A DNA stretch of 64,000 nucleotides from a candidate division FCPU426 bacterium (lineage in GTDB: Bacteria > Oederibacteriota > Muellerivitia > Muellerivitales > Muellerivitaceae): positions 96,001-160,000 of the forward strand of contig CAVTWJ010000002.1 of NCBI GenBank assembly GCA_963738405.1. The letters run 5' to 3'. Below, piece by piece: positions 1-58,225 of this stretch; position 1 is the first letter of the stretch, and each line of letters starts with the position of its first letter. The notes under the pieces are model-generated. The model made no database searches and was not told where the DNA came from. It worked only from the letters and a program-made list of their open reading frames with translations. A program made the translations under genes and the position numbers.

Positions 1-1191
1 CTGGTACCGGCTTCCGGCATATTCAACTGAACCCAATAGGCTGACTCCCTTTTGAATCGGCAGGGTTCCCTCAGCGCTAAGGCTTCCTACTTGGTACATC
101 CGGGCATAAGTCGAGGGGTTGCCAGGGACGTAAGCCAGATCAGCGGTGCCCGTATCATTCCAAAGCTGAATTCCCGCGCCCTTGATCGACAGGTTGTCGT
201 CCAGGAATCCCATGGACCCTTCGGCCCCCGCATAGTTGTTCCCGAAGGCGAAAAGAGAGGCGGTGTTTAATTCACCCGCCATGGCCTGCAAATGGAAGGA
301 ACTTATAACTTGGTTATCCAACACCATCTGGTCTGAGGAAGCCTGGAGACCCCGCATGTGCCAATCGGGTCCATGATCCATATAAACCAATTCCTCCACA
401 TCCTTGCGGGCACGGTAATAGGAAGTCGGTTCGATGAAGGTATAGACCGGAATTTCGGAATTCCAAAGGGTCAGGGGGGTGTAATGACGGTAGAAATCGC
501 CGGCGGTCAGATTGGCGATGTCGTTGACGTTGTTCAAGGATAGCCAGCGGATGTTGTAATCGGGGCTGATGGGTTCCCCATAGATGAAGCCAATGGTTCG
601 GTAAAGGCGCAGGTCCGCGTCAAAAAGCACAAAGGGCACCGGAACGCTTCTTAACTTCACATCCGCGAACATCACGTCGTTGTAGTCCATCGGGTTATAG
701 ATGGCGTTCGCCCCGAAACCCCGGAAGTTATTGAAGTAGCCTCGGGAGTAGCCCGAAAGCTGTGTTCCCGTCTTGCTCAAATCATCGGCTTGGAGACTGG
801 AGAATCTTTCGTTCATGTTTTCCACGTTAGAAAGCCGGTCCTCAATTTGGGAAACTTCAACATCCATAATCGAAAGTTCCACATCGAACTCATCCAACAG
901 TTCGTTGAGACTTCGCCCGGCCGCGGATTGACCGGGAGTGGCGGATGGCGGCAAGTCATTGACCTTCTTCGCGGCTTGGGCCGTCAACTGGGCTACTTCC
1001 AAGTTGTCCAGTTCACTGATCGGCTTTTCCGGTTGCGCGATCCATCCCGCCTGAACCAAATCCTCAAGGCTCTTGTCAATCCAACCGTCCCTTTGGACGG
1101 ACGTAAGGGTGCCATGTTCGGCCAAGGCGGGTAAAACCCAGCCCATGCCGAGGAGGCAGGCGAAAATTAAGATTAAACTTAACTTCTTCAT
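1..1191 (-). CDS. Outer-membrane protein with SLH-like N-terminus, coiled coil and probable beta-barrel (partial, runs off window start)
   Basis: Not in the ORF track; translated by hand from ATG at 1191. MKKLSLILIFACLLGMGWVLPALA signal peptide, SLH-like 'SVQRDGWIDKSLEDLVQAGWI...LDNLEVAQL', coiled coil 'LNELLDEFDVELSIMDVEVSQIEDRL', then aromatic-rich beta-strand-like sequence; frame open to base 1. Confidence 0.7.
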   Translation of the reverse strand, partial: MKKLSLILIFACLLGMGWVLPALAEHGTLTSVQRDGWIDKSLEDLVQAGWIAQPEKPISELDNLEVAQLTAQAAKKVNDLPPSATPGQSAAGRSLNELLDEFDVELSIMDVEVSQIEDRLSNVENMNERFSSLQADDLSKTGTQLSGYSRGYFNNFRGFGANAIYNPMDYNDVMFADVKLRSVPVPFVLFDADLRLYRTIGFIYGEPISPDYNIRWLSLNNVNDIANLTAGDFYRHYTPLTLWNSEIPVYTFIEPTSYYRARKDVEELVYMDHGPDWHMRGLQASSDQMVLDNQVISSFHLQAMAGELNTASLFAFGNNYAGAEGSMGFLDDNLSIKGAGIQLWNDTGTADLAYVPGNPSTYARMYQVGSLSAEGTLPIQKGVSLLGSVEYAGSRYQ

Positions 1192-1232
1192 TTCTCTTTC
1201 AATTCCTTTTCCACTTTCAAGTTTCATCCCTT

Positions 1233-3926
1233 TTAAAACTGCATCAGGAAGTAGGTATAAACCTGATCCGCCTGGTAATTATTGGCGGGCAGGTCGGCAT
1301 CCTGAAACGTCAGGTGCTTATAGCGGAATTCCAGTTTGGAACCGCCCCAGGGCATGTCGTAAGCCAACCCCGCCCCAATGGAATCGGTTCGGTAATCCAC
1401 CAGGGGCCAGGAGTAATGGGAGGTCCAAAGTTCCACACCGTAATCGGCCATAAGATTCACAAAGGGAAGGACTTGGTACATGAGGGAGCCGTCATAAACC
1501 GACTGGTCAAACAGGTTTGGAATTTGACCCAGCGTCTGACCCGGGCGGTTGGGGTCCGGCATGCTTGAAAAGAATGGATTGGTGGAGACGCCTGAGACCT
1601 GGTGGTCGGTAAAGAAAAAGTCCCCATAAAAGGGCCGGTCGCTTCCCAACATCTTGTTGAACTGGAATTTGGTAGTCAGGGTGATGTAATTGAAAGTTTT
1701 CAGGTGATCCAATGCGTAATAAACATTGTGCCCGCCGTTGGTTTGGATCACCCCAGGAGAGGAATAGACCGGCATGATGAAGGGCACCCGTTGGGTATTC
1801 CCGGCCGCGACAAAAATATCCTCGTTGGCGGTGGCGCTCCCCACGTTGCGGGCGTTCTCGATATTGCCGACATAGGCCTTCCCCACCGGGTTGACCCCGC
1901 TGTAACCGCCCCAGGCGGAGCCCCAAAGGCCCAGGTCCTCCGGGTAATAAGCCGTAATTAAATCGTAGGCTTCCACTACGTTCAGCCCCACTTCATCCGG
2001 CATGACGCGGTATTCGGTCTTTTGCGCCACGTCCATATTCACCACGATGTCATCCAGGAAATCGGGCCAATTTTTCATCCAGTCTTCCTGGCGGCCCTTC
2101 CATCCCAAGTTGGCCCGCCAGCCATAGCGGTCGCTGATCAAATCATCCGCCATGCCGACAAAGCCGTACAGGTTGTCCGTATATGGAGCCGCCGCGGGAG
2201 CTTGATAGCCATATTGGGCGCTGTTATAACCCGCCAATAGAACCTTACTTTGGGTGTTGATGAAGGTGTCGCTGATGGCGGTGTAATAGAGGGTAAAGGG
2301 ATAGACATTAAGGGAAGCTTGCCCAGCGGGAGCTTCCAAAGCCGACGGGTTGAGGGTTCCATTTATCAGGGAGGTACCCCCGGCCGCCAAACTCGCAGGT
2401 CCGCCGTTAGGCGTCAATAGGCCCGTGTTGAAACGCGAGAACCCTCCCTCGATTTCCAAAAAGGCCGGTTTCAAGTCGATTCCAAAATCAGCCGCGAAGG
2501 TTTTTTGATCCATGGCCGGCGTCATGGTGACCGGCGAATAGGGCACCGAGCCGTAGTTCTCGTTCACCCATTCAGTGGAAAAAGAAGCTTGGAGATGGCC
2601 GTCCAAGAAGGGCTGGGTGTACTTAAAGGCTTCTTCCCATTTCTGGGACGCCGTCCGGTCTACCCGGCCCACCAAAAAGGTGGTCTTTGCGTCTTTGCTG
2701 ACTAGGGGAAGCTGGGTCCCGATCATATACATTCCAGAAAAGACCTTTTGGGAATTGTTCGAGTTGATCCAGGAGGCGTAACTGGGGACATAGGCGAGAT
2801 TGGTGATGTAATCGTCCCAATTCTTCTGGTTCTTGTCCCCGGAATACTTTTTGATATCGAAGGGGTCCTCGTAGCGCTGGCTCCCGGTCGAGCCCCCCCG
2901 GGTGAAGTCGCCCAAGTCCGTGTCGCTGGAGTAATATTCCACCGCCACCGTGCTGTTCCATTTTCCCAGCATCCCGTCAAGTTCATAGTTCAAGGAAGGA
3001 CTACTGAGGTAGATAGTCGAGGGCCCTGCAGAGGCGTTGGAGTCGTATAGGGTGCCGCTGATCCCCAGGTTGATACTTCCCTTCCCCCCCAGGTCCCCCG
3101 AAACCCCCAAGTTCATTTCATTTTTGAATTTCATGGCATCAATGGTCGCGAGAGCCCCTGAAACATCGAGATCTTCGTACCGGACGTCGGATTCGTAGGT
3201 GAGATGGAGCGCCCCGCCGGACCGGTTGGATTTGCGGAAGGCATCCTCCACTTCATCCTGAACAGCGTTTAAATGATCTAGTTCCACCTCTTGCTCCTTG
3301 ACGCGGTTATCATCCAGGCTCAAGCGGGTCTTGAGAACTTGGGTCTCCAAGCGGAATTCCTTGCGAAGGGCCGTGATTTCCTTCTTCATGGCCTGGGAAA
3401 GGGTTGAGGCGATATAGGGTCCGCTATAGATGGAAACGGATGATTGGGAAACCCCGGCGGCCGAGGATGATTCCTTCATGACCGGAACGGGAGCATCCGG
3501 AGCGATGGACAAATCGGACGGGCCGCCTTCATAGACAGGGGCTTGAGCTTGCGGAACAGGTGCAGGCGCTGAGGGCATCACCACAGCGGATGACGGAGAG
3601 GATACTGCTGGGGCCGCAGTCGCGGGCACCGGAACTGCGGGGGCGGATGGTGAAACGGCGGGCGCTGGGGCTTCCCCATCCAACTTGGTTTCGGCCTTCT
3701 CGGTATAGAGGGCCAGTTCCAAACGGGTCACGACTAGGCCTTGATCCAGCACAGCCTTGTCCTGAGGGTCTAACAACCCGGCATCCCCCAGCTTCTTAAC
3801 CCTTTGGTAAAGGTCGCTGTCGGCGGTGACGTTTTCCATAGGGTAAGCCCCGAGGCCCTTGAGGCCCCCGAGAAAAAACAAACCCAGGAAAATTATTTTT
3901 ACAAAGGTTTTCATTATTTCTTTCAA
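1233..3926 (-). CDS. OmpM-like outer-membrane protein (SLH-like domain, Pro/Ala linker, coiled coil, beta-barrel)
   Basis: Signal peptide; 'VTADSDLYQRVKKLGDAGLL...VTRLELA' resembles SLH; 'ITALRKEFRLETQVLKTRL' coiled coil; ends YTYFLMQF (terminal Phe barrel signal). Alternative start ATG at 3914. Confidence 0.7.
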   Translation of the reverse strand: MKEIMKTFVKIIFLGLFFLGGLKGLGAYPMENVTADSDLYQRVKKLGDAGLLDPQDKAVLDQGLVVTRLELALYTEKAETKLDGEAPAPAVSPSAPAVPVPATAAPAVSSPSSAVVMPSAPAPVPQAQAPVYEGGPSDLSIAPDAPVPVMKESSSAAGVSQSSVSIYSGPYIASTLSQAMKKEITALRKEFRLETQVLKTRLSLDDNRVKEQEVELDHLNAVQDEVEDAFRKSNRSGGALHLTYESDVRYEDLDVSGALATIDAMKFKNEMNLGVSGDLGGKGSINLGISGTLYDSNASAGPSTIYLSSPSLNYELDGMLGKWNSTVAVEYYSSDTDLGDFTRGGSTGSQRYEDPFDIKKYSGDKNQKNWDDYITNLAYVPSYASWINSNNSQKVFSGMYMIGTQLPLVSKDAKTTFLVGRVDRTASQKWEEAFKYTQPFLDGHLQASFSTEWVNENYGSVPYSPVTMTPAMDQKTFAADFGIDLKPAFLEIEGGFSRFNTGLLTPNGGPASLAAGGTSLINGTLNPSALEAPAGQASLNVYPFTLYYTAISDTFINTQSKVLLAGYNSAQYGYQAPAAAPYTDNLYGFVGMADDLISDRYGWRANLGWKGRQEDWMKNWPDFLDDIVVNMDVAQKTEYRVMPDEVGLNVVEAYDLITAYYPEDLGLWGSAWGGYSGVNPVGKAYVGNIENARNVGSATANEDIFVAAGNTQRVPFIMPVYSSPGVIQTNGGHNVYYALDHLKTFNYITLTTKFQFNKMLGSDRPFYGDFFFTDHQVSGVSTNPFFSSMPDPNRPGQTLGQIPNLFDQSVYDGSLMYQVLPFVNLMADYGVELWTSHYSWPLVDYRTDSIGAGLAYDMPWGGSKLEFRYKHLTFQDADLPANNYQADQVYTYFLMQF

Positions 3927-3958
3927 TGTTCCCTTAAAGCCTAAGACATCCCAACGGA

Positions 3959-4726
3959 TCAGTAGAACTCCACCTCATCCACCCAGTAATCAATTTTGCA
4001 ATTCCCCTGGCTGTTGCCGTTGGCGTCCACCCATTCCACATCCAAAATCTCCTTCAAGTGGTCAGTGAAATCCGGTGGGGATACCGGCGAACCCCATCCC
4101 GAGCCCCTCTTCAAATTGGTAAAGGGCAGGTCTTTTTTCACCCAATCCAGTGTCTGGACCAGGTCCGCCCCGAAGTGGTTATAGCAACCATCGGAGCATA
4201 TCCCTCCCCCGGAAGAGGGCACGGTGGCGGCAATAGGGATATTGAATCGGTGGCTCGTGGCCTGGTCATCGGCCGGACACTTGTAATAAAAACGGATGCC
4301 ATGAAAGGGGGATGCGTCGTAAAAACCGCTTCGTTTGAACTTGCCCGACAAAACAAAGGAAGGATAACTATTGTCCCCCTTGTTGATGAGGGTTCCCGAA
4401 ACATGGAGGGCCATGGCGGTGCCGTTGGCTCCCCCCGGAACCACCAAAGGCGTATCCACGGTTCCGCTATAGATGTTGACGGTCCAAAGTCCGCCTTTCA
4501 TGCCGTACAACTTGGGATTCATGCGGACCGAGCCGTCCTCGAAATTGCTGATCAAGGCTTGGTCGGGTGGAATCACGATCTTAGGGGCAGAGTTTGCCGG
4601 GTCTTTTAAACCATCCGAGAGGGGTTCAGATTTGGAGCCTTCGTTAATAAGGACCGCCCCGCAACCCGCGAGAAGAAAAACCACAGACAGGCAGAGAAAG
4701 AGGGTGGTTGCTTTTGCCGGGGCCAT
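3959..4726 (-). CDS. Lipoprotein with CBM11/CIA30-like carbohydrate-binding domain
   Basis: Lipobox LAGC; 'ISNFEDG', 'DASPFHGIRFYYK', 'DWVKKDLPFTNL..GWG', C-terminal 'YWVDEVEFY'; start moved to ATG 4726. Confidence 0.7.
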   Translation of the reverse strand: MAPAKATTLFLCLSVVFLLAGCGAVLINEGSKSEPLSDGLKDPANSAPKIVIPPDQALISNFEDGSVRMNPKLYGMKGGLWTVNIYSGTVDTPLVVPGGANGTAMALHVSGTLINKGDNSYPSFVLSGKFKRSGFYDASPFHGIRFYYKCPADDQATSHRFNIPIAATVPSSGGGICSDGCYNHFGADLVQTLDWVKKDLPFTNLKRGSGWGSPVSPPDFTDHLKEILDVEWVDANGNSQGNCKIDYWVDEVEFY

Positions 4727-5043
4727 AATCACCTTTGAGGGGAAATCATATAGAACAACCAATCGGAACGAATGTCCCTTTTTCGGCAAAGCTTACTTTA
4801 CTAAAACCACCTGTCATATAAAACCAATAAAGTTCAAACCCTCGTTGTAAAAGGAAACATTCTTAAACAAATTTAAAAGTTTCCCGTTTCACGGGTCTTT
4901 CCTTTACCCGGTAACTTTCACCGGCCCTTTAAAAATGATCCAAGTCCTGCAAGATTTCTTTTTTCACAAGCCGGTCGAAAATTTCCCAGGCCGGACAATT
5001 AAACCTATAATGATTTTCCCCTAACCCAATTCAGGAGACTTTC

Positions 5044-7686
5044 ATGAACCGTCCGTCCCAAATATTTCTGCTGGCGTTTTTCTCGGGGGCCCTGGTTCTT
5101 TCCCAATCCGCCTGCACGATCCGCCCGATGGTGACGGCGGATAAATCCCAAACCGCCGCTTCCGACGTTATCCAGTTTTATTCCGCCTCCTGGGCCGACT
5201 CTTCCGGCAAGGACGGCAAGGGCGGCGTCAGCGTAGTATGCTCCGGCGACAGCCACGCCTTTTTGATTCGCCCCGACGCCACCAAGGAAAGGATCGACTC
5301 CAAAACCCTTACCGACAATCCCGACTGGGTGGTCTATGACAGCGGCAGTAACTCCGATTCCTGCCTTTCCTACGAATTCACCTGGGTCACAAACGTCAAC
5401 GACAAGTTTTGGGGGAAAAGATGGAGCGGCGGCGGGGTGGCTTTTGATAAAAGCTGGTCCACCAAGAACCTGGAAGACGCCAAATATCTGGTCTTTTACG
5501 CCAAGAGCAATGCCCCGGGGGTCGATTTCAACCTAAGTCTCTCTGGAACGACCGATCAGGTCGCCACGGGCAACGTCAGCGTTAAGGATTTCGCCTTGGG
5601 CCATCAAATCGGGGCGGATTGGACCCAGGTCATCATTCCTATTTCCTCCTTCCCCAACCTTTCCAAGATGGACCTGTCCCAATGCAAGATGATCCGGTTT
5701 GACCTGGCGGGCGATTACCCCGAAAACGCCCTGGTTTATTTTCACATCGACAAGATGTACTTCACCGACAGCCCCATGGTGACGCCCGTGAACAACCTGG
5801 GGTGGCAGCCCCTCCGGGATGGGGTCTTTGTAATTTGGGACAAGTCCCCCGATGAGGCGGTGGATCGTTTCATCCTGACCGTGGACGGCCAGCCTGCTGG
5901 CGAAGTGGATGGAAAACAACGCACCGCCAAGCTTCCCCTTTCCCTCTTCCAAGCCCCCGGCGTCCACAAATTGGGCGTGGTCGCGGCGGACGGCAAAAAC
6001 ACCTCTTCCATCCAAACGGTCACGGTGGATTTGACCCCCCATGCGGTCGCTACAGCAGTCGTAAGCCTGGCTTCCCAGGGGGACCATCCCATTTCGCCCT
6101 ATCTCTTTGGCTTCAACTACATGTCGAAGGACAGTCTTAAAAAAGTCGGCGGGACCCTGAACCGTTGGGGCGGCAACGCCACCACCAACTACAACTGGAA
6201 GGAGGACGCGGACAACAAGGGAGCGGACTGGTATTTCCTCAACGCCGCCCAAGCGGGCCCGGGCGCGCCCGAGAAGGATAAACGCTACTACCAATTCATC
6301 CAGGACGCTTTCGACGCCGGTTCCCAAGCCATCATCACCATACCCACCATCGGGTGGGTGGCCAAGGCGCCGCCGAAAGGCGGGCCGGAACTTTCATCCT
6401 TTCCCACCTCCCTCTATCCCGACCAGGAAGCCAATGACGGCCAAGGCTCCGGAAACGGGGTTCTGACGAATAAAAAAGGGTTGGTTTGGGATAACGACCC
6501 CAACCGTAATTACGTACCTTCGACCCCCGAATTCCAAAAAGAATGGGTGCAGACCATCGTGAAGAATTTCCATTCCGCTTCCCAGGGCGGGGTCAAGTTT
6601 TACCAGATGGACAACGAACCCGGCCTCTGGAACTGGAACCACCGGGATGTGGCCCCCAAGGGAATCAGCTACGACCAGATGGTGGATTTAAACGCGACCT
6701 ATGCCCAGGCGGTCAAATCGGTAGACCCCGACGCCAAGGTCATCGGCATGACGGCCTGGGGGGTGAAGGAACTGGCAGGGTCGGCTTGGGACGACATGCC
6801 CGGGGGCGTGGCCCATTACAAAGGCGACGGCACCGGCGATCGATGGACCGACCGCAAGGCCCACGGGGATATGCCCCAGGTCGCTTACTTTCTCCAGGAA
6901 ATGAACAAGCGCTCCCAAAAGGCGGGTATCCGGCTGATTGACTACCTGGACGACCACGGCTATCCGGAAGTCTGGGGCACGAACGCCCAGGGTCAAAACG
7001 TGAATGTACTGGGAGACTTCGCCTATGATCCGGTCCTTACTCCCAAGCAGTTTGACGCCCTTCGGATCTTTTACGACCCAACCTTCGAGGACCCCTCCAG
7101 CTGGTGCGCCCAGCCAAGCCTCAAACCCTATCTCTTTGATCCCTTCCGCCCCCTGATCCCCAACTTGAAAAAGATGATCGCCCAGTACTATCCAGGCACC
7201 AAGCTCTCCATGACCGAGTACTACCCGGCCAGTTCCCACTACTATCACGGGGGCCTATTGGAGATCGTGACTCTGGGTATCTATATGAGGGAAGGCATGG
7301 ACCTGGCCTGCGACTGGGGTTCTTCTTGGGAAGGCAATTACGTGTACCTGGGCCATAAGTTCTTTAGTAATTACGATGGGAACGGTTCCAGAGTGGGCGG
7401 CGACTACGTCAATTGCACCTCTTCCTCCCCCGATCTCTATTCTTTCGGGGCCAAAAATGGAGCCAAGACATTCGTGATTCTGGTAAACCGCAACCACGAC
7501 CAGAATTTCGAAACCACGGTTAACCTTTCCCAAGCGGCCGCCGACTACGAAATCTTCACCATGTCGGAAAGCCTGGGCTATCGTTTGATGGATTCGGGCG
7601 TCCATCCGGCGCCCGGCGCATCCTTAAAGATTCAGGTTCCGGCCTTCTCGGCCCTCTTGGTCGTGGCTGATACAACAAAGAAGTAA
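5044..7686 (+). CDS. GH44 endoglucanase/xyloglucanase with N-terminal CBM11-like and FN3-like domains, probable lipoprotein
   Basis: GH44 motifs ISPYLFGFN, RWGGNATTNYNW, MDNEPGLW (acid/base), SMTEY (nucleophile); signal ending SQSAC; SD aggag. Confidence 0.9.
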   Translation: MNRPSQIFLLAFFSGALVLSQSACTIRPMVTADKSQTAASDVIQFYSASWADSSGKDGKGGVSVVCSGDSHAFLIRPDATKERIDSKTLTDNPDWVVYDSGSNSDSCLSYEFTWVTNVNDKFWGKRWSGGGVAFDKSWSTKNLEDAKYLVFYAKSNAPGVDFNLSLSGTTDQVATGNVSVKDFALGHQIGADWTQVIIPISSFPNLSKMDLSQCKMIRFDLAGDYPENALVYFHIDKMYFTDSPMVTPVNNLGWQPLRDGVFVIWDKSPDEAVDRFILTVDGQPAGEVDGKQRTAKLPLSLFQAPGVHKLGVVAADGKNTSSIQTVTVDLTPHAVATAVVSLASQGDHPISPYLFGFNYMSKDSLKKVGGTLNRWGGNATTNYNWKEDADNKGADWYFLNAAQAGPGAPEKDKRYYQFIQDAFDAGSQAIITIPTIGWVAKAPPKGGPELSSFPTSLYPDQEANDGQGSGNGVLTNKKGLVWDNDPNRNYVPSTPEFQKEWVQTIVKNFHSASQGGVKFYQMDNEPGLWNWNHRDVAPKGISYDQMVDLNATYAQAVKSVDPDAKVIGMTAWGVKELAGSAWDDMPGGVAHYKGDGTGDRWTDRKAHGDMPQVAYFLQEMNKRSQKAGIRLIDYLDDHGYPEVWGTNAQGQNVNVLGDFAYDPVLTPKQFDALRIFYDPTFEDPSSWCAQPSLKPYLFDPFRPLIPNLKKMIAQYYPGTKLSMTEYYPASSHYYHGGLLEIVTLGIYMREGMDLACDWGSSWEGNYVYLGHKFFSNYDGNGSRVGGDYVNCTSSSPDLYSFGAKNGAKTFVILVNRNHDQNFETTVNLSQAAADYEIFTMSESLGYRLMDSGVHPAPGASLKIQVPAFSALLVVADTTKK

Positions 7687-7738
7687 TGGTTAGTGCTGAC
7701 TTTATAGATAGAACTGAAGAAAAGCCCTGGAACCCGGG

Positions 7739-7747
7739 TGGTATAAT
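7739..7747 (+). promoter_or_regulatory. Extended -10 sigma70-type promoter element
   Basis: TGgTATAAT about 65 nt upstream of ATG 7811, which has an AAGGAGG SD. Confidence 0.5.
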
Positions 7748-7810
7748 TCTTTTCGGGAAGTCTAAGGGCATTAAGTTTGTAACCGGTTTAAATCGCAAGG
7801 AGGCTTTTAG

Positions 7811-8518
7811 ATGAAGCGATGGCTCTTACTGGCCCCCCTATCCCTTTTGGTTTTATCCGCTCTTTGGTTGGGCAACCAAGGCTGCCATAACGAAAATGCG
7901 CCCATGTTCTTTTATACCGCCACTCCCACCGTCACTCTTTCCCCTACCCCCACCGTTACTTCCATTTACGCCACCTGCACCTCAACCTCCACCCCCGCGC
8001 TCATTGACGATTTTGAGGCCAACACCAATTCCAATACGGCCGTCCTGGCCAATCAATGCCGGGCGGGGTTCTATTTCACCTTTGGTTCCACCGCCAACCC
8101 CCAGATGAACGCTTCCATCGCCAACCCCGGCACCGGATACACCTGCGCCACCGGGTCCAGCAACAATGCCTTGCTATTGACCAGCGGGGCCGTGACGGGT
8201 TACGGGGCCGTTTTCGCCCTGGCGCCCCAGGCGGGCGGGAACCCTTACGATATCAGCCAATTCAGCGGTATCCAATTTTGCGGGCTTTTGAGTTCCACCG
8301 CCAACTCGGCCGGACCCAGCAGTTTTCAGATCGACGATTCGGGGAGCGGGGCCCTGAACGCCAACCTTTCCTTCACAACCTCCTGGAGCACCTACAGCAT
8401 TCCTTTTTCCTCTATGACGGGCACCGAAAACCTGAAACAAACTGTGCGGCTTCTTTGGATCACAGGAACCACAACCTCTTCCGTGAATTACTACCTGGAC
8501 AACATCAGCTTCTTTTAA
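7811..8518 (+). CDS. Lipoprotein with Thr/Pro linker and CBM11/CIA30-like domain
   Basis: Signal ending NQGC; TPT linker; 'LIDDFE', 'DISQFSGIQF', 'SWSTYSIPFSSM', 'YYLDNISFF'. Confidence 0.7.
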   Translation: MKRWLLLAPLSLLVLSALWLGNQGCHNENAPMFFYTATPTVTLSPTPTVTSIYATCTSTSTPALIDDFEANTNSNTAVLANQCRAGFYFTFGSTANPQMNASIANPGTGYTCATGSSNNALLLTSGAVTGYGAVFALAPQAGGNPYDISQFSGIQFCGLLSSTANSAGPSSFQIDDSGSGALNANLSFTTSWSTYSIPFSSMTGTENLKQTVRLLWITGTTTSSVNYYLDNISFF

Positions 8519-8592: not shown

Positions 8593-9909
8593 TTATTTTT
8601 GGTTGAAATACTTTCGGTTGAGCTCTGCCGTCAACTTGGGAAGAATCTCTTCGGGTTTCTTTTTCCCCAGCCAGGCCAGATCCAAAGCCGGCCCCACCTG
8701 CCCGTCCCAGATTTCCCCCCAATTCCCAATGAAGGGCGTGAAATAGCCGCTCTGGGGCATCCCCAACAGAATGTTTTTGTGGGCGGCCCCAAGGCTCTTC
8801 AGGAATGCGTCCGAACCCGCCACCTTAACCAATGCGGGTTGAATCATGCCGGTCTGGGCCACTTGGGCCGCCACTTCCGCGCTCGTCAATTCCTTGAGAA
8901 CAATCCAGGCGTTATCCATGTTCTTGCAATCCCTGCTGATAGCGTAACCCGACCCGCCGCATTGCCACCCTTGCTTCCCGCTTGGCCCGTGGGGAAATTC
9001 CACCACGTCAAAGTTCAGGTCTTTTTTCTCCAAAAAATGGGGCGTATGCCAAACCCCCGAGCACATCATGGCCGCTTGGCCGTTGAGGAACATGTTTTCC
9101 GCGCCCGTCCCGAAGCTGAAATTTTGCAGTTCGCTGGGGTTGGGCGAGACGTGGTAGGTGTGGATCATATCCCATCGGAAACGAAAGCCCGCCATGGCCT
9201 CGGGGGTATCCAGGGCCATCTTGGTGGGATGGTCTTCGCTATCCGTGAAATAACCTCCGTTACTGAGCATAAAATTCACCGCGTTGGTGCCGTAGGGGTC
9301 CACGAAAGCCCAGCGGGTGATCTTGCCCGAGGCGTCCTTTTTCACGAGCTTTTCGCAGATGGGAAGGAAATCATCCGGCCATTTCCAGGCCGCCGTGGGG
9401 TAAGGAATACCGGCATCGTCGAAGAACTTTTTGTTGTAATAGACCAAGCCGATGGGCGCAAGGTCTGAGGGAATCGCGTAGATTTTCCCTCCGGGGCTGA
9501 AACGGTTCAGGATGGTGGGGTAATAATCCTTCACGTCCATTCCGTCCTTCTGGAAATAGGGGGTCAGGTCCACAAAGGTGTTGCGAAGGTACAGATCGAC
9601 AAACTGGCTGGCTTCGGTGCTGACAATGTCGGGCGCGGTGCCCGCCACCAATTGGGTGACGATTTTTTCCTCGAATTGGGGGTAGGGGATGCTTTCCATC
9701 CGAACCTTCAAGCCCGGGTGGCGGGCCTGGATGTTTTCGATGGTTTTGTTGAGTATTTGGATGACAGTGGGGTCGGTGCTGAAAATCGCCACCCGCACCA
9801 GGTTCTTATCGGTCTTGCTACAGCCCACCGACAAAACCGCCAAAGCCAGTACCGCCGCAGCTAAAAGATTGGTTCTTTTCACAGACACACTCCGATTCTC
9901 TTTTATCAC
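8593..9909 (-). CDS. Sugar ABC transporter solute-binding lipoprotein (family 1)
   Basis: Lipobox SVGC; 'AGTAPDIV', 'VYYNKKFFDDAGIPYP', 'FLNGQAAM', 'GGSGYAIS'. Confidence 0.9.
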   Translation of the reverse strand: MIKENRSVSVKRTNLLAAAVLALAVLSVGCSKTDKNLVRVAIFSTDPTVIQILNKTIENIQARHPGLKVRMESIPYPQFEEKIVTQLVAGTAPDIVSTEASQFVDLYLRNTFVDLTPYFQKDGMDVKDYYPTILNRFSPGGKIYAIPSDLAPIGLVYYNKKFFDDAGIPYPTAAWKWPDDFLPICEKLVKKDASGKITRWAFVDPYGTNAVNFMLSNGGYFTDSEDHPTKMALDTPEAMAGFRFRWDMIHTYHVSPNPSELQNFSFGTGAENMFLNGQAAMMCSGVWHTPHFLEKKDLNFDVVEFPHGPSGKQGWQCGGSGYAISRDCKNMDNAWIVLKELTSAEVAAQVAQTGMIQPALVKVAGSDAFLKSLGAAHKNILLGMPQSGYFTPFIGNWGEIWDGQVGPALDLAWLGKKKPEEILPKLTAELNRKYFNQK

Positions 9910-9916
9910 TTAAACC

Positions 9917-12817
9917 TCACGGCACCGCAGGTGTTAAAGACGTCCCTACCGTTTCAATTTTCAGCGTTGCGGCCGAAAGGCCATCCGAATCAGCCTTCAG
10001 GGTCAGGGTTCCCGGCTGATGGCCTGACTGCACGATCACCTGGGCCAGACCGTTGAAGAGGCTTCGCTTCCAGGGTGTCGCCGGGATCACGGTGCGGATG
10101 GAACCCGGGTCCATATTCAGGTTATCCCAGGTCCACCTTCTCATCAGTTCCGGTCCCACCACCGCGTAAACATTGCGTCCCTTTTTCAAGATGGACTTGG
10201 GCAGGGGGAACCCCTGGTTTGGCTCGTCCCGTTTGATCTTTTCGGCGATCAACTGGCCGTTGACATAGATGGACTGGTCTTCCGCCAGGCTCTTGGGATA
10301 CAAAATAATCTCGGTGTAGTCATCCAGATTAGGCAGATCGAAATGCCCCCGGATCACCCGGTTGGCGGGCTTATCCTTCGAAACTTCGCCCTGGTCATCC
10401 TTTCGGCCTTGGAATAGATCGGCCCAATTGGAATCATCCTGGCCGAACTCCACTTCCGGGCGCTTGCCCAATTCGCCGCCATCCTTCATTTTCAGACCCT
10501 CAATTTTGACCTGGGTCACGGTGTCAAAATACCGATCCGCTTCATGGCAGGAAGGGTCGCCATTACCCACACCGATGATTTGGCCTTGCCCCTCCAACGA
10601 AAAGTGAATCAGGTTCCCGGCGGTAGGTACGGGTCTTCCCTGCTTGTCCACAACCCGCACGGTCACCACCGAAACATCATCCCCATCGGCTTTGATCGTG
10701 GATTGGTCGGGCATCAGCACAATGGATACCGGGTCGCCCGTGGTTTCCTGCAAAGCGTAAGTGGCTTCCTTTCCGCCTTTAAAACCCTTGGCCGATAACA
10801 TTCCCGGCGCATAGGGCACCTGCCATTCCAGATGCCCGTTCACCGGCACCTTTTGCTTGCCAAGGCTGGTGCCGTTCAAAGAAAGTTCCACCTCGTCGCA
10901 ATTGCTGTAGGCCCTAACCAGTATGTTTTTGCCCTCTTTGCCCTTCCAATTCCAATGGGGAGATAGCATCAACACCGGCTCGTTCGTCCACCAGGCTTTC
11001 AGGTAATCAAAAGAACTGTCCTTGGGAAACCCGCAGGTGTCGAGAACGCCGTATTGGGAGCTGATGGCGGGATAGGTAAAAGGCGTTTCCTCTCCCCTGT
11101 AGTCAAAACCCGTCCAAAGGAAAAGCCCGCCCAGATAGGGCCTATCGGCGTAGTATTTCCAAACTTCCTCAATGCTGGGGCCCTTGGGGTTAAGGTTGGT
11201 CGGCCCCAAGTGGCAGGCTGCCTTGTCCGTCTCATAAACGCCCCGGGTCTGGTTGGTGGTGCTTTCTTCGGTGGCGAAGCTGGGCTGGTCGGGGAACTTT
11301 TTGTGCTGGTCGTCCGTGCTTCCGTGAGCGTGATAGTTGTAGCCCATCACGTCAATGACGGTTGAAGAGCCATTTCCCCATCCCGAATCAATGGCGGCGG
11401 TTACCCGGCGGGTCGGGTCCAGGCGTTTTACGAAATCCTGCATGGGCGGAACAATCTGCGCCCCATAAACATTGCCTTCCATGCCCCATTCCTCGTTGCC
11501 CAGCGACCAGGCGAATACGCAGGGGTGGTTGCGGTCCAGAACAATCATGCGTTTCAATCGGTCCATCAGTTCCGGACTGGTACCCATCGACCGGTTTTCC
11601 ACCAGCACCAGCATGCCCAGTTTGTCGCAGGCATCCAGCAATTCAGGCGTGGGAGGGTTGTGGGAACAGCGGTAAGCGTTACAGTCCATTTCCTTCAGTT
11701 GTTTGATGCGGAAAGCTTGCAGGGCGTCCGGCAGGGCGGCCCCCACCCCCGCGTGGTCCTGGTGGTTGGAAGTTCCCTTCAGTTCCACCCGTTTGCCATT
11801 AAGAAGGAAGCCCTTATTCGGGTCGAAGGTTACGGTGCGTATGCCAAAGGGGGTTTCGGTGCGGTCCACTACTTCGGTACCGGACAAGACCGTGGTGATA
11901 ACTTTATAGAGGGTAGGTGATTCGAGTGACCAAAGTTGGGGCTTGGGCACCTGTACCGCAACCGAATACTGCCCGGTCTCGCCGGGGTGAAGCAGGGCCT
12001 TGGCGAGCGAACCCTTTCCTACAGTTTTTCCATTGGCGTCTTGAACAACCTGTTCAATTTTAAAAGAAGCGGCCTTTTCTTTTTCACAAACCACCGAAGT
12101 TTGAACTGTAATTTCGGCATTTCCCTTCCCAACCTTTGAAGTCACAAAGGTTCCGTTGTAGTCGATATGCAGAGGCGATGTTTTGGTCAACCAGACATGC
12201 CGATAGATTCCCGCGCCTTCGTAAAACCAGCCTTCTTCCGTGGTCGCGTCCACCCGCACGGACACGGTGTTATCCCCACCATAGTTAAGATAGGGGGTCA
12301 TGTCGTAGCGGAAGTTGTTGTAACCGCTTTGCTCCCGGCCCAGGTAAAAACCGTTCACCCAAACCACCGAATCCCGGTAAACCCCGTCAAACTCGATGCT
12401 GATTCGCTTTCCCTTGTCTGAAGCGGGAATGTTAAAGGTCTTGCGGTACCAGCCAATGCTTGCGCCCGGAAAATTGCGGCCTAGCGCCTTGAAGCCGTGG
12501 CTATAACTTCCCTTTTCGTCAAAGGGCAGTTCCACCGCCCAGTCATGGGGCAGGTTGAGTACTCTCCAGGCTCGGTCGTCAAATTTTGGGTCGGCGGGGC
12601 CGTCCGCCAAACCCGCCTTAGCGAAGTAGGAAAAAAAGGTCGTGGTGAATCCGTAATCCTGGTTTGGGTCGGTGGCATGCCCCAAGGCAAACCGCCAACC
12701 GGCATCCATTAGAAGATGTTCTCTGGGCGAAGACATGGTTTTATCCTCGGCCCAAACTTGAGTAATCATTAAAAGTAACGTTGCGAACACCAGCGTGAAT
12801 CTTTTCACGTAGGCCAT
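9917..12817 (-). CDS. GH2 beta-galactosidase, secreted
   Basis: LPHDWAVE, FDGVY, GIYRHVWL, NAYRCSHNP, DRNHPCVFAWSLGNEE, WTGFDYRGE; start moved to ATG 12817 because the ORF-track extension runs into an intergenic repeat. Confidence 0.92.
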   Translation of the reverse strand: MAYVKRFTLVFATLLLMITQVWAEDKTMSSPREHLLMDAGWRFALGHATDPNQDYGFTTTFFSYFAKAGLADGPADPKFDDRAWRVLNLPHDWAVELPFDEKGSYSHGFKALGRNFPGASIGWYRKTFNIPASDKGKRISIEFDGVYRDSVVWVNGFYLGREQSGYNNFRYDMTPYLNYGGDNTVSVRVDATTEEGWFYEGAGIYRHVWLTKTSPLHIDYNGTFVTSKVGKGNAEITVQTSVVCEKEKAASFKIEQVVQDANGKTVGKGSLAKALLHPGETGQYSVAVQVPKPQLWSLESPTLYKVITTVLSGTEVVDRTETPFGIRTVTFDPNKGFLLNGKRVELKGTSNHQDHAGVGAALPDALQAFRIKQLKEMDCNAYRCSHNPPTPELLDACDKLGMLVLVENRSMGTSPELMDRLKRMIVLDRNHPCVFAWSLGNEEWGMEGNVYGAQIVPPMQDFVKRLDPTRRVTAAIDSGWGNGSSTVIDVMGYNYHAHGSTDDQHKKFPDQPSFATEESTTNQTRGVYETDKAACHLGPTNLNPKGPSIEEVWKYYADRPYLGGLFLWTGFDYRGEETPFTYPAISSQYGVLDTCGFPKDSSFDYLKAWWTNEPVLMLSPHWNWKGKEGKNILVRAYSNCDEVELSLNGTSLGKQKVPVNGHLEWQVPYAPGMLSAKGFKGGKEATYALQETTGDPVSIVLMPDQSTIKADGDDVSVVTVRVVDKQGRPVPTAGNLIHFSLEGQGQIIGVGNGDPSCHEADRYFDTVTQVKIEGLKMKDGGELGKRPEVEFGQDDSNWADLFQGRKDDQGEVSKDKPANRVIRGHFDLPNLDDYTEIILYPKSLAEDQSIYVNGQLIAEKIKRDEPNQGFPLPKSILKKGRNVYAVVGPELMRRWTWDNLNMDPGSIRTVIPATPWKRSLFNGLAQVIVQSGHQPGTLTLKADSDGLSAATLKIETVGTSLTPAVP

Positions 12818-12917
12818 CCTTGGTTTGAGAGTGGTTTTTTTGGAAAAGGGACATCGAGGAAGAATTATAGATGCAAACCACGGACAGCCAAACAACACAA
12901 ACAGCAAAACCAATTTT

Positions 12918-13035
12918 GCCACAGATACATGGGATGCATTGGATGGACAAACATTTTTCGTTTAGGCTTCAACTAAGAAAGAATCATTTTTTTGTTTAAC
13001 CTTTGCCTATCCCATTTATCCCATGCATCTGTGGC
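12918..13035. repeat. Inverted-repeat element, family B (GCCACAGATACATGGGAT)
   Basis: gccacagatacatgggat (12918-12935) and atcccatgcatctgtggc (13018-13035); third copy at 25246. Confidence 0.85.
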
Positions 13036-13180
13036 CAATCTCGTTTTTAGGTCTTTTTGAAACTTACTTAAACTTTTCTCTAGCGGGCCAATCAGTATTT
13101 TCTGGTTTTTTTAAAGGTTTTATCCTTCCCGACCTCCTAGCCTATAATCATTTCCACTTGTCTTATATTTGGAGGAATTG

Positions 13181-14188
13181 ATGTCCTTGAAAACCCTCTT
13201 TTTACTCAGCCTGGCCCTTACTTTCCTCGGCGGATGCGGCAAACCCGCAAGCAACAAGATCAAAATCGGCCTTTCCCTCGACACCCTCAAGGAGGAACGT
13301 TGGCAGCATGACCGGGATCTTTTCGTAGCCAAAGCCCAGGAACTGGGCGCGGAAGTCGAGGTGCAGGCGGCAAATTCAGACGATGCCCGCCAGAATTCCC
13401 AGGCCGAAAACCTGCTCACCGAAGGGGTGAATGTGCTGGTCGTGGTTCCCCATAACGGCAAGACCATGGGAACCATTGTGGATTCAGCCCACAAGCTGGG
13501 CGTGCCGGTGATCGCCTATGACCGCCTCATCATGGATTCGGACCTCGACCTTTACATTTCCTTCAACAACGTAAAGGTGGGCGAGTTCCAGGCGGATTAT
13601 TTGGTTAAGCGCAAACCGAAGGGAAATTATGTTTTGATCGGCGGGGCACCAACCGACAACAACGCGAAGCTTTTCCGTCAGGGGCAGATGAATGTTTTGA
13701 ATCCCCTGATCCAAAAGGGAGATATCAAGATCGTGGCCGACCAATGGGCTGACGACTGGCTTCCCCTGAAGGCCCTGCAGATCATGGAAAACGCCCTCAC
13801 CAGCAACCACAACCAAGTGGATGCGGTGGTGGTTTCCAACGACGGCACGGCGGGGGGTGCCATCCAAGCCCTCTCCGAGCAAAACCTGGCGGGCAAGGTC
13901 TTGGTTTCCGGGCAAGATGCCGACCTAGCAGGCTGTCAACGCATCGCGGCGGGCACCCAAAGCATGACAGTTTATAAGCCCATCAAGAAGTTGGCGGAAA
14001 AGGCCGCTGAAATAGCGGTCCTCATGGCACAAAAGAAGCCCCTCACCGACCCCACGACCACTGTTCCCAACGGCAAGAAAGACGTGACTTCAATTCTTAT
14101 CGAACCCATCGAAGTTGATAAGGACAACCTGGATTCCACTGTCATCGCGGATGGCTACCAGAAGAAAGAAGACGTGTACAAAAAATAA
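13181..14188 (+). CDS. xylF: D-xylose ABC transporter substrate-binding protein
   Basis: IGLSLDTLKEERWQHDRD, YDRLI, GGAPTDNNA, VSGQDADL, QSMTVYKPI; SD ggagg before ATG 13181. Confidence 0.92.
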   Translation: MSLKTLFLLSLALTFLGGCGKPASNKIKIGLSLDTLKEERWQHDRDLFVAKAQELGAEVEVQAANSDDARQNSQAENLLTEGVNVLVVVPHNGKTMGTIVDSAHKLGVPVIAYDRLIMDSDLDLYISFNNVKVGEFQADYLVKRKPKGNYVLIGGAPTDNNAKLFRQGQMNVLNPLIQKGDIKIVADQWADDWLPLKALQIMENALTSNHNQVDAVVVSNDGTAGGAIQALSEQNLAGKVLVSGQDADLAGCQRIAAGTQSMTVYKPIKKLAEKAAEIAVLMAQKKPLTDPTTTVPNGKKDVTSILIEPIEVDKDNLDSTVIADGYQKKEDVYKK

Positions 14189-14201
14189 ACACCTAATTAT
14201 T

Positions 14202-14330
14202 CACCACCAAGACACCAAGGCACCAAGTTAAGACAGAATAAAAAACTTTAGACTTAGTTTTTCAAAGGCTTGATTTTCGGTTTTGCAAATAATTATTAGG
14301 CTGTTCTTGGTGACTTGGTGTCTTGGTGGT
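14202..14330. repeat. Inverted pair of family A repeat (CACCACCAAGACACCAAGGCACCAAG)
   Basis: Forward copy 14202-14227, inverted copy 14306-14330, AT-rich spacer. Confidence 0.9.
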
Positions 14331-14356
14331 AAACATTTCTTTTTTGGTGGTGAGGT

Positions 14357-15868
14357 TTGTCTTTACTTGAACTTAAAAACATAACCAAAGACTTCCCCGG
14401 CGTGCGGGCGCTGGACGGCGTCTCCTTTGACCTGCAAAAGGGCGAAATCCACGCCCTTTGCGGCGAAAACGGCGCGGGCAAAAGCACCCTCATTAAAATC
14501 CTTTGCGGTTACCACCCCCACGGTTCCTACCAGGGTGAAATTCTGCTCAAAGACAAGTCCGTCCATTTTCACGACCTGAAAGATTCAGAAGAATCGGGTA
14601 TCGCCCTCATCGCACAAGAACTAGCCCTTGTTCCTGAGTTATCGGTAGCGGAAAACCTAATGTTGGGTAAGGAACCTACCCGCAACGGCTTTATCCAATG
14701 GTCCGAAGTCAAAGCGAAGGCCCAGGAAGCCCTTCAATTGGTGGATTTGAAAGTGGACTTGAACCGTCCGGTCAAGGAATTGGGTATCGGCCAGCAACAG
14801 ATGATCGAAATCGCCAAGGCCCTTTCCAAGAAGGCCGAAATTTTGGTTTTGGATGAACCCACAGCAGCCCTGACCGAATCGGATACCGCCCGCCTGTTGA
14901 ATTTCCTGAAACAGCTTAAATCCCAAGGCGTTTCCTGCGTCTATATCAGCCACCGGCTAGAGGAAGTGCGCCAAATCGCCGACCGGGTCACGGTCTTGCG
15001 AGACGGCAAGTCCGTCATTACCAAACCCCTGGGCGAATTGACCCAAGACCAAATCATCAGCCACATGGTGGGCCGAAAGGTTGAAAGCCTCTATCCCCGG
15101 CTCCAAACACAGGAAGGGCCGGTAATCCTTTCGGTCAAAAACCTAAGTGTCGAAGACCCTGCCAACCCGGGTCGTTACGTGGTGAAAAATGTCTCTTTCG
15201 ATGTAAAGCAGGGCGAAATACTGGGAATCGGCGGGCTTATGGGCGCTGGCCGTACCGCCCTTTTAAGTTCTCTTTTCGGCGCGGCCCGGGGCCGCATGCA
15301 AGGCCGTATCGAGGTTAATGGCAAGGTGCGGGGGCCCTTTAACTCTCCCCAGGAAGCCATTGCCGAAGGCATTGCCTTGGTCAGCGAAGACCGCAAACGC
15401 TATGGGCTGGTTCTGGGTTCTTCGGTTCAAGAAAACATCATCTTGGCCATTCTTCATAAACTCGTTTCCAAGAGCCTGATTAACTGGCCGGAAGTTCAGA
15501 AAGTTTGTTCTGAATATGTGGATTCTTTGCGAATCAAGATTCCCAGCTTGGATACCCAGGCCAACAAGCTTTCAGGCGGCAATCAGCAGAAGGTGATTCT
15601 GGGCAAATGGCTGGCCACTCACCCCAAGGTGCTTTTGTTGGATGAACCTACCCGCGGAATTGATGTGGGCGCCAAGGCAGAGATTTATGAACTCATGAGT
15701 CGGTTAGCGGCCCAAGGATTGGGAATCGTTTTGGTTTCTTCGGATTTGCCTGAGTTCCAGGGCCTTTGCCATCGCATGATCGTACTGAATCAGGGTCGTA
15801 TGACAGCGGAATTTGGATATAAGGACGCAACACCGGAAAAATTGCTGGCTGCGGCGGCACTTTCTTAA
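14357..15868 (+). CDS. xylG: Xylose ABC transporter ATP-binding protein (two ABC domains)
   Basis: GENGAGKST, LDEPT twice, LSGGNQQK; follows xylF. Confidence 0.9.
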   Translation: MSLLELKNITKDFPGVRALDGVSFDLQKGEIHALCGENGAGKSTLIKILCGYHPHGSYQGEILLKDKSVHFHDLKDSEESGIALIAQELALVPELSVAENLMLGKEPTRNGFIQWSEVKAKAQEALQLVDLKVDLNRPVKELGIGQQQMIEIAKALSKKAEILVLDEPTAALTESDTARLLNFLKQLKSQGVSCVYISHRLEEVRQIADRVTVLRDGKSVITKPLGELTQDQIISHMVGRKVESLYPRLQTQEGPVILSVKNLSVEDPANPGRYVVKNVSFDVKQGEILGIGGLMGAGRTALLSSLFGAARGRMQGRIEVNGKVRGPFNSPQEAIAEGIALVSEDRKRYGLVLGSSVQENIILAILHKLVSKSLINWPEVQKVCSEYVDSLRIKIPSLDTQANKLSGGNQQKVILGKWLATHPKVLLLDEPTRGIDVGAKAEIYELMSRLAAQGLGIVLVSSDLPEFQGLCHRMIVLNQGRMTAEFGYKDATPEKLLAAAALS

Positions 15869-15963
15869 TAGCAGGGAGAAATTAAAAGTTTAAATAAATA
15901 AAGAAAAATTAAAAGCAAGCAGCAACTATAAGTTTCAAACTTTTATAACGGAAAGGTACAAGG

Positions 15964-16506
15964 TTGAAATTTTTCAAAAACAAAAAAGGTATATTTAGTT
16001 TTATCGTTGGTTTTATTTGTTGTGGGGGCTTCCTTCTAATTCAAGCATTAACTTGGAATGTAAATCTTATTGCTAATCATGGTTTAAATATGGCAGTGAG
16101 TGCTTATTATACGATTTTATTTTCTTTTGGTTCTCTAGGTTGTGTGGTTGGGTTAGTAGTTGGAGTTTTGGGATTAAAAGACAAAAACGCAAAAACAAAA
16201 GCTTTTCCACTTTTCAACCTGCTGGGCATTTTTTTAACCTTATTTTTTATTTTTATTACCGTTTGGCAACTTCGCTTAAATTGGGAAAAATATTTTTTTA
16301 TATTACTTCTTCTCCTTCAACAAATCATTTTCTGGGTGATTTTAATTTCAGTACCTGGTTTTTTGATTTGGTCTTTATTCGTATGGAAACCCAAGAGTAA
16401 AACAGAAAACACTTTAAAAAGAATACTAGATTTTATACTCGTTTTGCTTATCGCTGTTTTCTGTCTCTATATAGCACTTATGGTGCATTTCGGAACAAAA
16501 GTTTAG
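15964..16506 (+). CDS. AT-rich multi-pass membrane protein of unknown function
   Basis: About 5 hydrophobic segments; DNA visibly far more AT-rich than flanking xylG/xylH. Confidence 0.6.
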   Translation: MKFFKNKKGIFSFIVGFICCGGFLLIQALTWNVNLIANHGLNMAVSAYYTILFSFGSLGCVVGLVVGVLGLKDKNAKTKAFPLFNLLGIFLTLFFIFITVWQLRLNWEKYFFILLLLLQQIIFWVILISVPGFLIWSLFVWKPKSKTENTLKRILDFILVLLIAVFCLYIALMVHFGTKV

Positions 16507-16594
16507 GCCTTACATAAAAAGCATGGAGCTATAACTCCACTGCACATAATGGTTAATTCATTATGTAACCTAATTCACAATGGGAAAGTAAGCC

Positions 16595-28929: not shown

Positions 28930-29335
28930 GGATGCCCCTTGAGAAATGGATTCTCCCCGCCGACCCCTGCTCGAAGAACACCATTTAAACGCAAACAAAT
29001 CATTCCATGCTCCTTTTTTTCAAGGAACCCATTCCATCCAAAAAGAATCCAAACAAATCAGTTAAACGAGGAAGAAAATGAAACAGACCGAAACCTTTTC
29101 AATCCTTTTTCAGTGCCAACCAGAATTTTCACGGGGCACCTCCGCCCTTTTCATCAAAGCCCTTTTCTCTTGGTTAAAGAGGGGCTTTACTTCATTCCAC
29201 GGTATCTTCTTTGGTGGTATGATTAATTCGTTTTGGCGTACTTGAAGCAAATCTCAACCCCGCCCAATGAGTAAATCGATCAGGGCCTAACGGGGCTGTT
29301 GAAATCCGGCGCAAGACCATCCGCGGAGGAAAATA

Positions 29336-58206: not shown

Positions 58207-58225
58207 TTTTCACTCCTAAAAAACT

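Follow-up and report, generated by a model that had tools for sequence, protein, structure and literature searches.

In a 64,000-nucleotide window of a candidate division FCPU426 genome (G000:C2:96001-160000, where G000 is the genome under study, the window is the whole stretch of DNA analysed and L-numbers denote fetched loci), co-oriented genes encode predicted β-barrel proteins with a surface-layer homology (SLH)-like head together with lipoproteins resembling carbohydrate-binding modules (CBMs). The module runs in the order lipoprotein L1, barrels A, B and C, and a 230-aa lipoprotein, with a LacI regulator next. L1 and A are separated by 32 nt and A and B by 5 nt, and B and C overlap. A likely start of B is its second ATG, at 1191. 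The original prediction had listed A, B, L1, a glycoside hydrolase (GH) family 44 enzyme and a 235-aa lipoprotein-like product; all of these open reading frames (ORFs) were present as described, and the tight co-oriented spacing of L1, A and B was confirmed. Both of its tandem barrels are real, and they belong to a set of three whose last member lies outside the window. The features are collected in Table 1; signal peptides were assigned by eye.

Table 1 Features of the module and its surroundings (window positions unless a genome coordinate is given)
Feature	Position	Strand	Remarks
Downstream lipoprotein	G000:C2:91935-92627		230 aa; after C, beyond window
Barrel protein C	G000:C2:92661-95000		779 aa; 3' of B, beyond window
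Barrel protein B	1..1227	-	first 409 of 747 aa in window; continues to G000:C2:94984
SLH-like head of B	952..1122	-	about residues 36-92; TNLEVA-type motif instead of TRxE
Barrel protein A	1233..3926	-	897 aa; signal peptide, SLH-like head, Pro/Ala/Ser linker, coiled coil, barrel ending in Phe
SLH-like head of A	3678..3845	-	residues 28-83; TRLELA motif
Predicted coiled-coil stalk of A	3219..3395	-	residues 178-236; single long helix in model
Barrel domain of A	1236..3206	-	residues 241-897; without N-terminal plug domain
Lipoprotein L1	3959..4726	-	255 aa; lipobox LLAGC; CBM11-like fold
GH44 endoglucanase/xyloglucanase	5044..7686	+	880 aa; Pfam PF12891, E 1.3e-59
Second CBM-like lipoprotein	7811..8518	+	235 aa; Thr/Pro linker; L-family profile E 1e-9
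Sugar-binding ABC lipoprotein	8593..9909	-	recurrent neighbour of type I copies
GH2	9917..12922	-	recurrent neighbour of type I copies
Sugar ABC transporter	13169-17683		wider glycan cluster
GH31	17981-20356		wider glycan cluster
SASA esterase	20708-22708		wider glycan cluster
GH29	26677-28998		wider glycan cluster
GH36	31859-34051		wider glycan cluster

The folds of A and B were modelled with AlphaFold2. The A model (71 sequences, pLDDT 76.7, pTM 0.69) comprised helices at residues 38–83, a disordered linker at 86–174, a long helix at 178–236 and about 22 long strands at 241–896, strand numbers being our own count from the DSSP lines of the models. The B model (mean pLDDT 84, pTM 0.73) followed the same plan, with about 22 strands and a short predicted coiled coil at about residues 90–138. 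Large loops were found in the A barrel at about residues 333–394, 552–599 and 639–741, and in A and B alike large loops follow strands 5, 13 and 15. The barrel region of A, which had been judged unusually long at about 650 aa, reaches its 657 aa because of these large loops and not through extra strands; a giant barrel of SlpA size was ruled out by the approximately 22 strands of A and B. All 50 fold matches listed for B were membrane barrels, as were all those listed for A except an OmpM1 SLH match to its head. The lowest root-mean-square deviations (rmsd) of the A barrel were obtained with barrels of TonB-dependent transporters (TBDTs; ~3.7–4.4 Å over ~385–407 residues). No solved structure was singled out as a close barrel relative, since the top Z scores were 14.8 and 14.3 with many porins tied. 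The models thus bear out the barrels that had been proposed for A and B.

Neither PF00593 nor PF07715 was matched by A, B or C in Pfam, and in the models of A and B the SLH-like head and coil occupy the place where the plug would be; TBDT identity of A and B was ruled out by the absence of the plug. No informative Pfam or NCBIfam family was found for A, B, C or L1. The C-terminal residue is Phe in all 40 A homologues, and an aromatic residue ends 39 of 39 B and 35 of 37 C proteins. Profile-to-profile comparison identified B and C as paralogues over their full length (HH probability 100) and A-type and B-type barrels as remotely related (HH probability 96, between the Bacteroidota forms described below). 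The nearest cluster to B in the ESM Atlas is mostly from Candidatus Goldiibacteriota. Complex prediction for the A barrel (236–897) with L1 (22–255) gave a score of 0.00, which is evidence neither way.

The head of A superposed on the SLH domain of Veillonella OmpM1 (8bz2) with a Z score of 11.3 and an rmsd of 2.1 over 82 of 83 residues at 30% identity, and its profile matched 8bys with an E value of 1.9e-5. A profile of 90 heads matched the OmpM1 SLH domain (8bz2) at E 2.2e-11, with weak matches to Sap and SbsB, and an independent head profile from distant families matched 8bys at E 3.4e-9. The head is retained in all three paralogues and in distant families, and A and B share head and stalk (HH probability 97). 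The OmpM-like succession of SLH domain, coiled coil and barrel that had been recognised in the window is supported, the head by both profile and fold, the coiled coil and barrel by the models. The suggested search with SLH models gave a divided answer: the heads match the OmpM1 structure profiles, and Pfam SLH (PF00395) matched none of the 90 heads and no ORF of the genome. In the alignment of the heads to OmpM1, the GYPDG loop region is shortened. Elsewhere in the genome, a 327-aa protein (G000:C11:1527-2510) combines an SLH-like head (weak, E 0.005) and a long coiled coil with a C-terminal hydrophobic anchor where the barrel would be, an arrangement that we take to resemble Thermotoga Omp-alpha.

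The best match of the L1 family in the Protein Data Bank was CtCBM11 (1v0a/2lro), which the family profile reached weakly, at E 8e-4. No Pfam match, PF03425 included, was obtained for L1 or the 235-aa lipoprotein; lipoproteins at two distant loci (L031 and L045) pass PF03425. The proposed CBM11 likeness of L1 is weak, being seen in the family profile and not in Pfam. L1 has an invariant Cys pair, a conserved N-terminal segment CGAVxxNxGS and a true lipobox. These lipoproteins had been called SusD-like binders; they are CBM11/CBM30-like, in the manner of the surface glycan-binding protein SGBP-B and not of SusD, and the likeness to SusD is only an analogy. The GH44 enzyme contains a weak CBM30-like region (PF21582, E 0.003) and a possible lipobox at Cys24. 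A Cys lipobox is also present in the L005 and L052 homologues, and none was seen by eye in those of L006, L017, L049 and L066; from the expected lipidated surface enzyme, the GH44 assignment and the possible lipobox are retained, and the surface location is not.

We then consider how widely the module occurs. A has 72 close homologues, and its profile matched all 30 genomes of the family (one weakly) and the sole other genome of the order; in the phylum as a whole, the A profile matched 52 and the B profile 60 of 99 genomes. All 39 non-redundant loci of the order keep the succession A-B-C within the reach of their contigs, and L1 lay directly upstream of A in 35 of the 37 having upstream sequence. 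At one locus B is split in two frames (L061:10556-12755), and an extra module copy with internal stops lies on G048:C52; each reflects either decay or an assembly error. Nineteen distant loci from other families of the phylum, picked by weak A matches, encode A proteins that are full-length homologues (HH probability 99.7). In 18 of them one B/C-type gene lies right behind A, the nineteenth being a 2-kb contig, and CBM-like lipoproteins often follow the pair. Given A and B at these distant loci, sequence comparison suggests that the ancestral unit was an A + B pair and that C arose as a duplicate of B within this order.

Each of the trees computed for A, B, C and L1 across 30 loci (FastTree, rooted at the midpoint, no topology test) divided them into the same two sets, 14 of type I and 16 of type II. 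This concordance suggests that the module was duplicated as a whole into the two types; types were assigned by neighbourhood and best match, in agreement with the trees where tested. The type II copy is present in most family genomes, keeps its CBM-like lipoproteins and often has a LacI gene nearby. The window module is a type I copy; the second complete module of the genome under study (C9:270897-281278), of type II, has the order L1-A-B-C-L2-L3 and lies between an RlmD fusion and lepA. This fusion (L002:4520-8707; G000:C9:266520-270707), directly upstream of most type II modules, joins a ~480-aa N-terminal 23S rRNA methyltransferase, a low-complexity linker, a hydrophobic segment and a ~600-aa domain without a Pfam match; the RlmD assignment comes from a TIGR00479 match on the L051 homologue. 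Between LacI and the fusion, most type II loci also contain a conserved protein of ~250 aa, judged by eye to be CBM-like, and a convergent, barrel-like one of ~500 aa with an aromatic C-terminal residue (L002:1762-4272; G000:C9:263762-266272), neither of which matched Pfam.

The genes flanking the modules were compared with control regions. The 450 flanking ORFs of at least 150 aa fell into 222 clusters, Pfam scans covered 93 plus 104 proteins, and labels were passed to cluster members; about 28 of 129 non-distant representatives, taken as housekeeping or shadow ORFs, were left out of the scan. Duplicate loci (L008, L013, L016 and L062) were excluded from the counts, and the random control region L075 was excluded before counting because it overlaps the test locus L032. 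Among ORFs at type I loci, GHs made up 21 of 93 and were present at 11 of the 18 loci, a split GH2 being counted twice, compared with 4 of 95 in ten random family regions. At distant loci they made up 15 of 107 ORFs (9 of 19 loci), with eight GH74-looking BNR-repeat proteins uncounted, compared with 2 of 82 in nine regions drawn at random, with a seed, from four of those genomes. The anticipated linkage to carbohydrate-active enzymes (CAZymes) was thus found as an enrichment at type I and distant loci and not for the type II copy, whose housekeeping context is of the kind named beforehand as speaking against it.

At the window locus, GH44, GH2, GH31, GH29, GH36 and the LacI regulator were all identified by Pfam, and galactokinase, xylose isomerase and xylulokinase genes, recognised by eye, lie past the regulator. 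This enzyme set matches those of xyloglucan loci, from which the substrate of the window copy is likely to be xyloglucan or a related β-glucan. Two proteins inside the glycan cluster had no Pfam or NCBIfam match and are candidate CAZymes or binders: a 480-aa protein (window 23777-25219) and an 802-aa probable lipoprotein (window 29336-31744), the latter with a domain resembling the downstream Lx lipoprotein (E 7e-18). Six distant modules (L028, L029, L032, L033, L035 and L045) have xyloglucan-type sets (GH74-looking BNR-repeat proteins, GH44, GH2, GH29, GH31, GH35 and GH62) and a sugar-binding protein cluster shared with some type I loci. Three others (L030, L038 and L039) have large membrane proteins of the O-antigen-ligase type (Wzy_C) as neighbours instead of GH genes, a possible link to surface-protein glycosylation. 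FlgD_ig, Por_Secre_tail and PorP/SprF-like domains near the modules of L034, L039, L041, L043 and L050 suggest a type IX-like sorting system in the phylum.

SusD (PF07980) was matched in none of the 99 phylum genomes, and the positive control was matched in B. thetaiotaomicron. Together with the lack of a plug match in A, B and C, this result upholds the non-SusCD character claimed for the locus. TBDTs occur in 97 of the 99 genomes. No GH cluster was seen by eye in seven listed TBDT neighbourhoods of the genome under study; the eighth, in the window (56185-63315), comprises a TonB-dependent receptor with ExbB-like and TonB genes and a phosphoesterase, and is unrelated to the glycan cluster.

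Relatives lacking the SLH-like head were found in other phyla. A search of the A profile against 1.8 billion representatives gave 59 matches, the Bacteroidota forms not among them, and a metagenome scan with the headless protein P0118 gave no match; the Bacteroidota forms were reached by stepping through distant phylum members. A metagenome motif scan with the alignment of distant B proteins returned 48 loci, 30 of them remote, one of the 30 being a triplet of the module's own family. In the other 29, which include five near-duplicate locus pairs, A-type lay directly upstream of B-type in 27 of 27 loci with upstream DNA, and the SLH profile found no match. Most encode a headless A (~650 aa), a headless B (~575–600 aa), a 330-aa lipoprotein and a 400-aa lipoprotein, the last with CBM30, CBM9 or SGBP-B-type domains. 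According to a scan of 37 proteins from about nine loci, the pairs lie near GH3, GH16 and GH2-like genes and type IX-tailed proteins. Organism names on cluster-mates, available in three of ten clusters looked up, were all Bacteroidota (Flavobacteriales, Crocinitomicaceae).

In the reverse direction, a profile of 16 Bacteroidota-type B proteins found only the four B/C proteins among the 8,524 ORFs of the genome (E 1e-14 to 2e-18), and profile-to-profile comparison gave HH probabilities of 99.8 with B and 99.7 with C. For A, the profile-to-profile value was 91.8 directly, and 99.8 and 99.7 via distant phylum members. Three further loci (L105, L107 and L108) have A-B pairs without SLH, with a short helical N-terminal extension, downstream of ATP-binding cassette (ABC) genes; a 1062-aa CBM30/CBM11 lipoprotein (scanned in L105) and a carbohydrate phosphorylase follow the pair. 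These loci are probably from Fibrobacterota, and the commonest phylum among the ESM Atlas neighbours of a distant A barrel was likewise Fibrobacterota (0.96). By sequence comparison, the family appears to span at least two and probably three phyla.

The gene set, its order, the homologies, the predicted folds and the neighbourhood statistics constitute what was determined directly. From them we infer, with somewhat better than even confidence, glycan binding and import by a heteromeric, TonB-independent complex that probably also tethers the outer membrane. In such a complex, GH44 would cut xyloglucan or cellulose, either outside the cell or in the periplasm. At the mouth of the barrel, chains would be retained by the CBM11/CBM30-like lipoproteins, acting as SGBP-B does and not as SusD does. 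Fragments would enter by diffusion through a barrel of about 22 strands that has no plug and is narrowed by its loops, and for which A-type and B-type subunits would both be needed. Periplasmic binding proteins, ABC transporters and exo-enzymes (GH2, GH31, GH29 and esterase) would maintain the gradient. The three different stalks would assemble into one mixed A:B:C coiled coil, and the three SLH heads would bind the wall. A heteromer is proposed because the pairing is invariant across phyla and solved SLH stalks are trimeric (PMC10628300, PMC9388160).

Several observations weigh against this interpretation. At type II loci the setting is largely housekeeping (RlmD fusion, lepA, hrcA and dnaK) and GHs made up 1 of 96 ORFs (1 of 21 loci), a result that counts against a role bound purely to polysaccharide utilisation loci (PULs). 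No Pfam GH was present in the fetched stretch at 7 of 18 type I and 10 of 19 distant loci, and the enrichment counts at those two classes (21 of 93 and 15 of 107 ORFs) overstate significance because related genomes are not independent. Neither the A nor the B profile matched family groups f3–f7 and f9 of the phylum (29 genomes), the CBM11 match of the L1 family is weak as noted, and hmmsearch with the Bacteroidota A profile did not find the A of this genome. As for anchoring, CsaB (TIGR03609), a pyruvyltransferase that usually but not always accompanies OmpM/SlpA-type connectors, was not matched in this 90.7% complete genome, whose only PF04230 match lies inside a glycosyltransferase cluster; several OmpA-domain proteins are possible alternative tethers; and the existence of headless pairs indicates that the SLH head is dispensable for the core job of the pair.

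Part of this evidence could be read as showing that the module is mainly the general OmpM-type tether and porin of the lineage, with structural CBM-like lipoproteins and extra copies that drifted into CAZyme clusters. The presence of an A-family match in every family genome, the housekeeping setting of the type II copy and the full tripartite architecture of OmpM all agree with it, and OmpM1 is itself a general porin (PMC10628300). We nevertheless regard it as unlikely, because the nearest barrel relatives are headless pairs in the glycan loci of other phyla, OmpM barrels differ (16 strands, Z about 12, rmsd 6–7), type II copies too are accompanied by CBM-type lipoproteins, and a general porin would have no need of an A + B pair fixed across phyla. 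It is more doubtful still that import is right and the head has ceased to bind the wall, so that head and coiled coil only assemble the subunits. The missing Pfam SLH matches, the shortened GYPDG loop region, TNLE in place of TRxE in B, the lack of a CsaB match, the OmpA-domain proteins and the short helical extension of the probable Fibrobacterota members would suit this account; the head is, however, conserved in three paralogues and in distant families, and Negativicutes OmpM binds polyaminated peptidoglycan and not a pyruvylated polymer (PMC10628300). The least probable account has the barrels exporting polysaccharide or secreted enzymes, or scaffolding surface glycans in the manner of AlgE or Wzi, without import: the ESM Atlas neighbours of B do include AlgE (0.94) and Wzi (0.91) clusters, secreted proteins with a C-terminal domain (CTD) lie near several loci and a family 2 glycosyltransferase (GT2) gene is upstream at one remote locus (L118), but degradation, binding and import account for the overwhelming majority of the neighbours, with no recurrent polymer-synthesis operon.

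The capture and import complex that we favour has a published counterpart. In Cytophaga hutchinsonii, chu_1276-1280 is an atypical, non-SusCD cellulose PUL, in which growth on cellulose requires the outer-membrane proteins CHU_1276 and CHU_1277, the CBM11-like cellulose-binding CHU_1279 and an endoglucanase (PMC12016534); cellulose use in this organism is described as independent of SusC/D homologues (PMC12016534; PMC6247017). CHU_1276 is a predicted β-barrel with structural matches to TBDTs, and the C-domain of CHU_1279 is closest to CtCBM11 (6R3M; PMC12016534), the same sequence entry that our L-family profile also matches. In both systems, tandem outer-membrane barrels that are not TBDTs precede CBM-like surface proteins and a hydrolase, with no SusD, and the Bacteroidota A-B relatives found here show the same layout. 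The module differs from chu_1276-1280 in the SLH head and stalk on each barrel, in its three barrels, in its single-domain lipoproteins and in enzymes that point to xyloglucan. On this likeness of gene layout, chu_1276/1277 likely belong to the same family as A and B. The locus had been put forward as a different PUL design; it is not entirely new, a non-SusCD PUL of this layout having been published (PMC12016534).

In architecture the barrels resemble OmpM1 (8bys/8bz2/8bym) and Deinococcus SlpA (7zgx), with a signal peptide, a single SLH domain, a coiled coil and a C-terminal barrel, and the head of A is homologous to the OmpM1 SLH domain. They differ in having about 22 strands, against 16 in OmpM1 and 30 in SlpA, and heads unmatched by Pfam SLH. 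The solved OmpM and SlpA structures are homotrimers, whereas genes and models here give three divergent paralogues in fixed order with CBM-like lipoproteins. Like the module, the SusC/SusD utilisomes of Bacteroidota have a barrel of about this size, lipoproteins that bind glycans, hydrolases encoded nearby and a regulator. The module departs from them in matching no plug or TonB-receptor model of Pfam, in the absence of SusD from the 99 genomes, in having two or three barrel genes per set and in its wall-anchor head. The passive barrel proposed here, with periplasmic binding proteins and ABC importers taking over what has passed it, recalls maltoporin (LamB)/MalE/ABC, although no specific fold or sequence match to LamB was found (Z 12.6, rmsd 6.5–7.1, level with other porins) and the surface CBM-like lipoproteins and SLH stalks are additions. 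In sum, the module would work like the atypical PUL of Cytophaga and is built like OmpM, not like SusCD.

The host probably lies outside Terrabacteria, as we presume for its lineage. One survey reports OmpM as absent from Gracilicutes (10.1101/2021.05.31.446380), and another lists SlpA-like proteins in Chlorobi and Bacteroidetes (PMC9388160); with the surveys differing, the taxonomic surprise is moderate. Goldbacteria/FCPU426, which stand beside Firestonebacteria and Elusimicrobia, have been described as cellulose degraders rich in CBM11 (PMC7031533). In the open-access literature, supplements excluded, neither the triple form with stalks nor the pair shared across phyla was found described, and the available part of a 2026 review of glycoside transporters names no such class (PMC13543919).

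A wider reading is possible, and we advance it tentatively, as falling somewhat short of an even chance. Taken as one proposition, it would make the family a third general design of glycan import besides SusCD and single sugar porins, in which two ancient paralogous barrels, each of 22 strands and without a plug, form an obligate heteromer with CBM lipoproteins as lids. This design would be common to Goldiibacteriota-like bacteria, Fibrobacterota and SusCD-independent Bacteroidota including Cytophaga, and here it would have gained OmpM-type SLH stalks by fusion and grown into an A:B:C heterotrimer serving as wall tether and feeding port at once. If true, it would explain product uptake by contact-dependent cellulose degraders and put a Pfam-invisible SLH tether outside Terrabacteria.

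It has long been asked how contact degraders of the Cytophaga and Fibrobacter types take up the products of cellulose breakdown in the absence of SusCD. A two-barrel family without a Pfam or NCBIfam model, always with an A-type and a B-type member beside CBM-like proteins, offers a concrete and testable transporter, and the A-B pair is a marker for PULs missed by current pipelines. The SLH-stalked triple form bears on the claimed Terrabacteria-only range of OmpM-type tethers, and A:B:C is a natural candidate for a heterotrimeric porin-tether.

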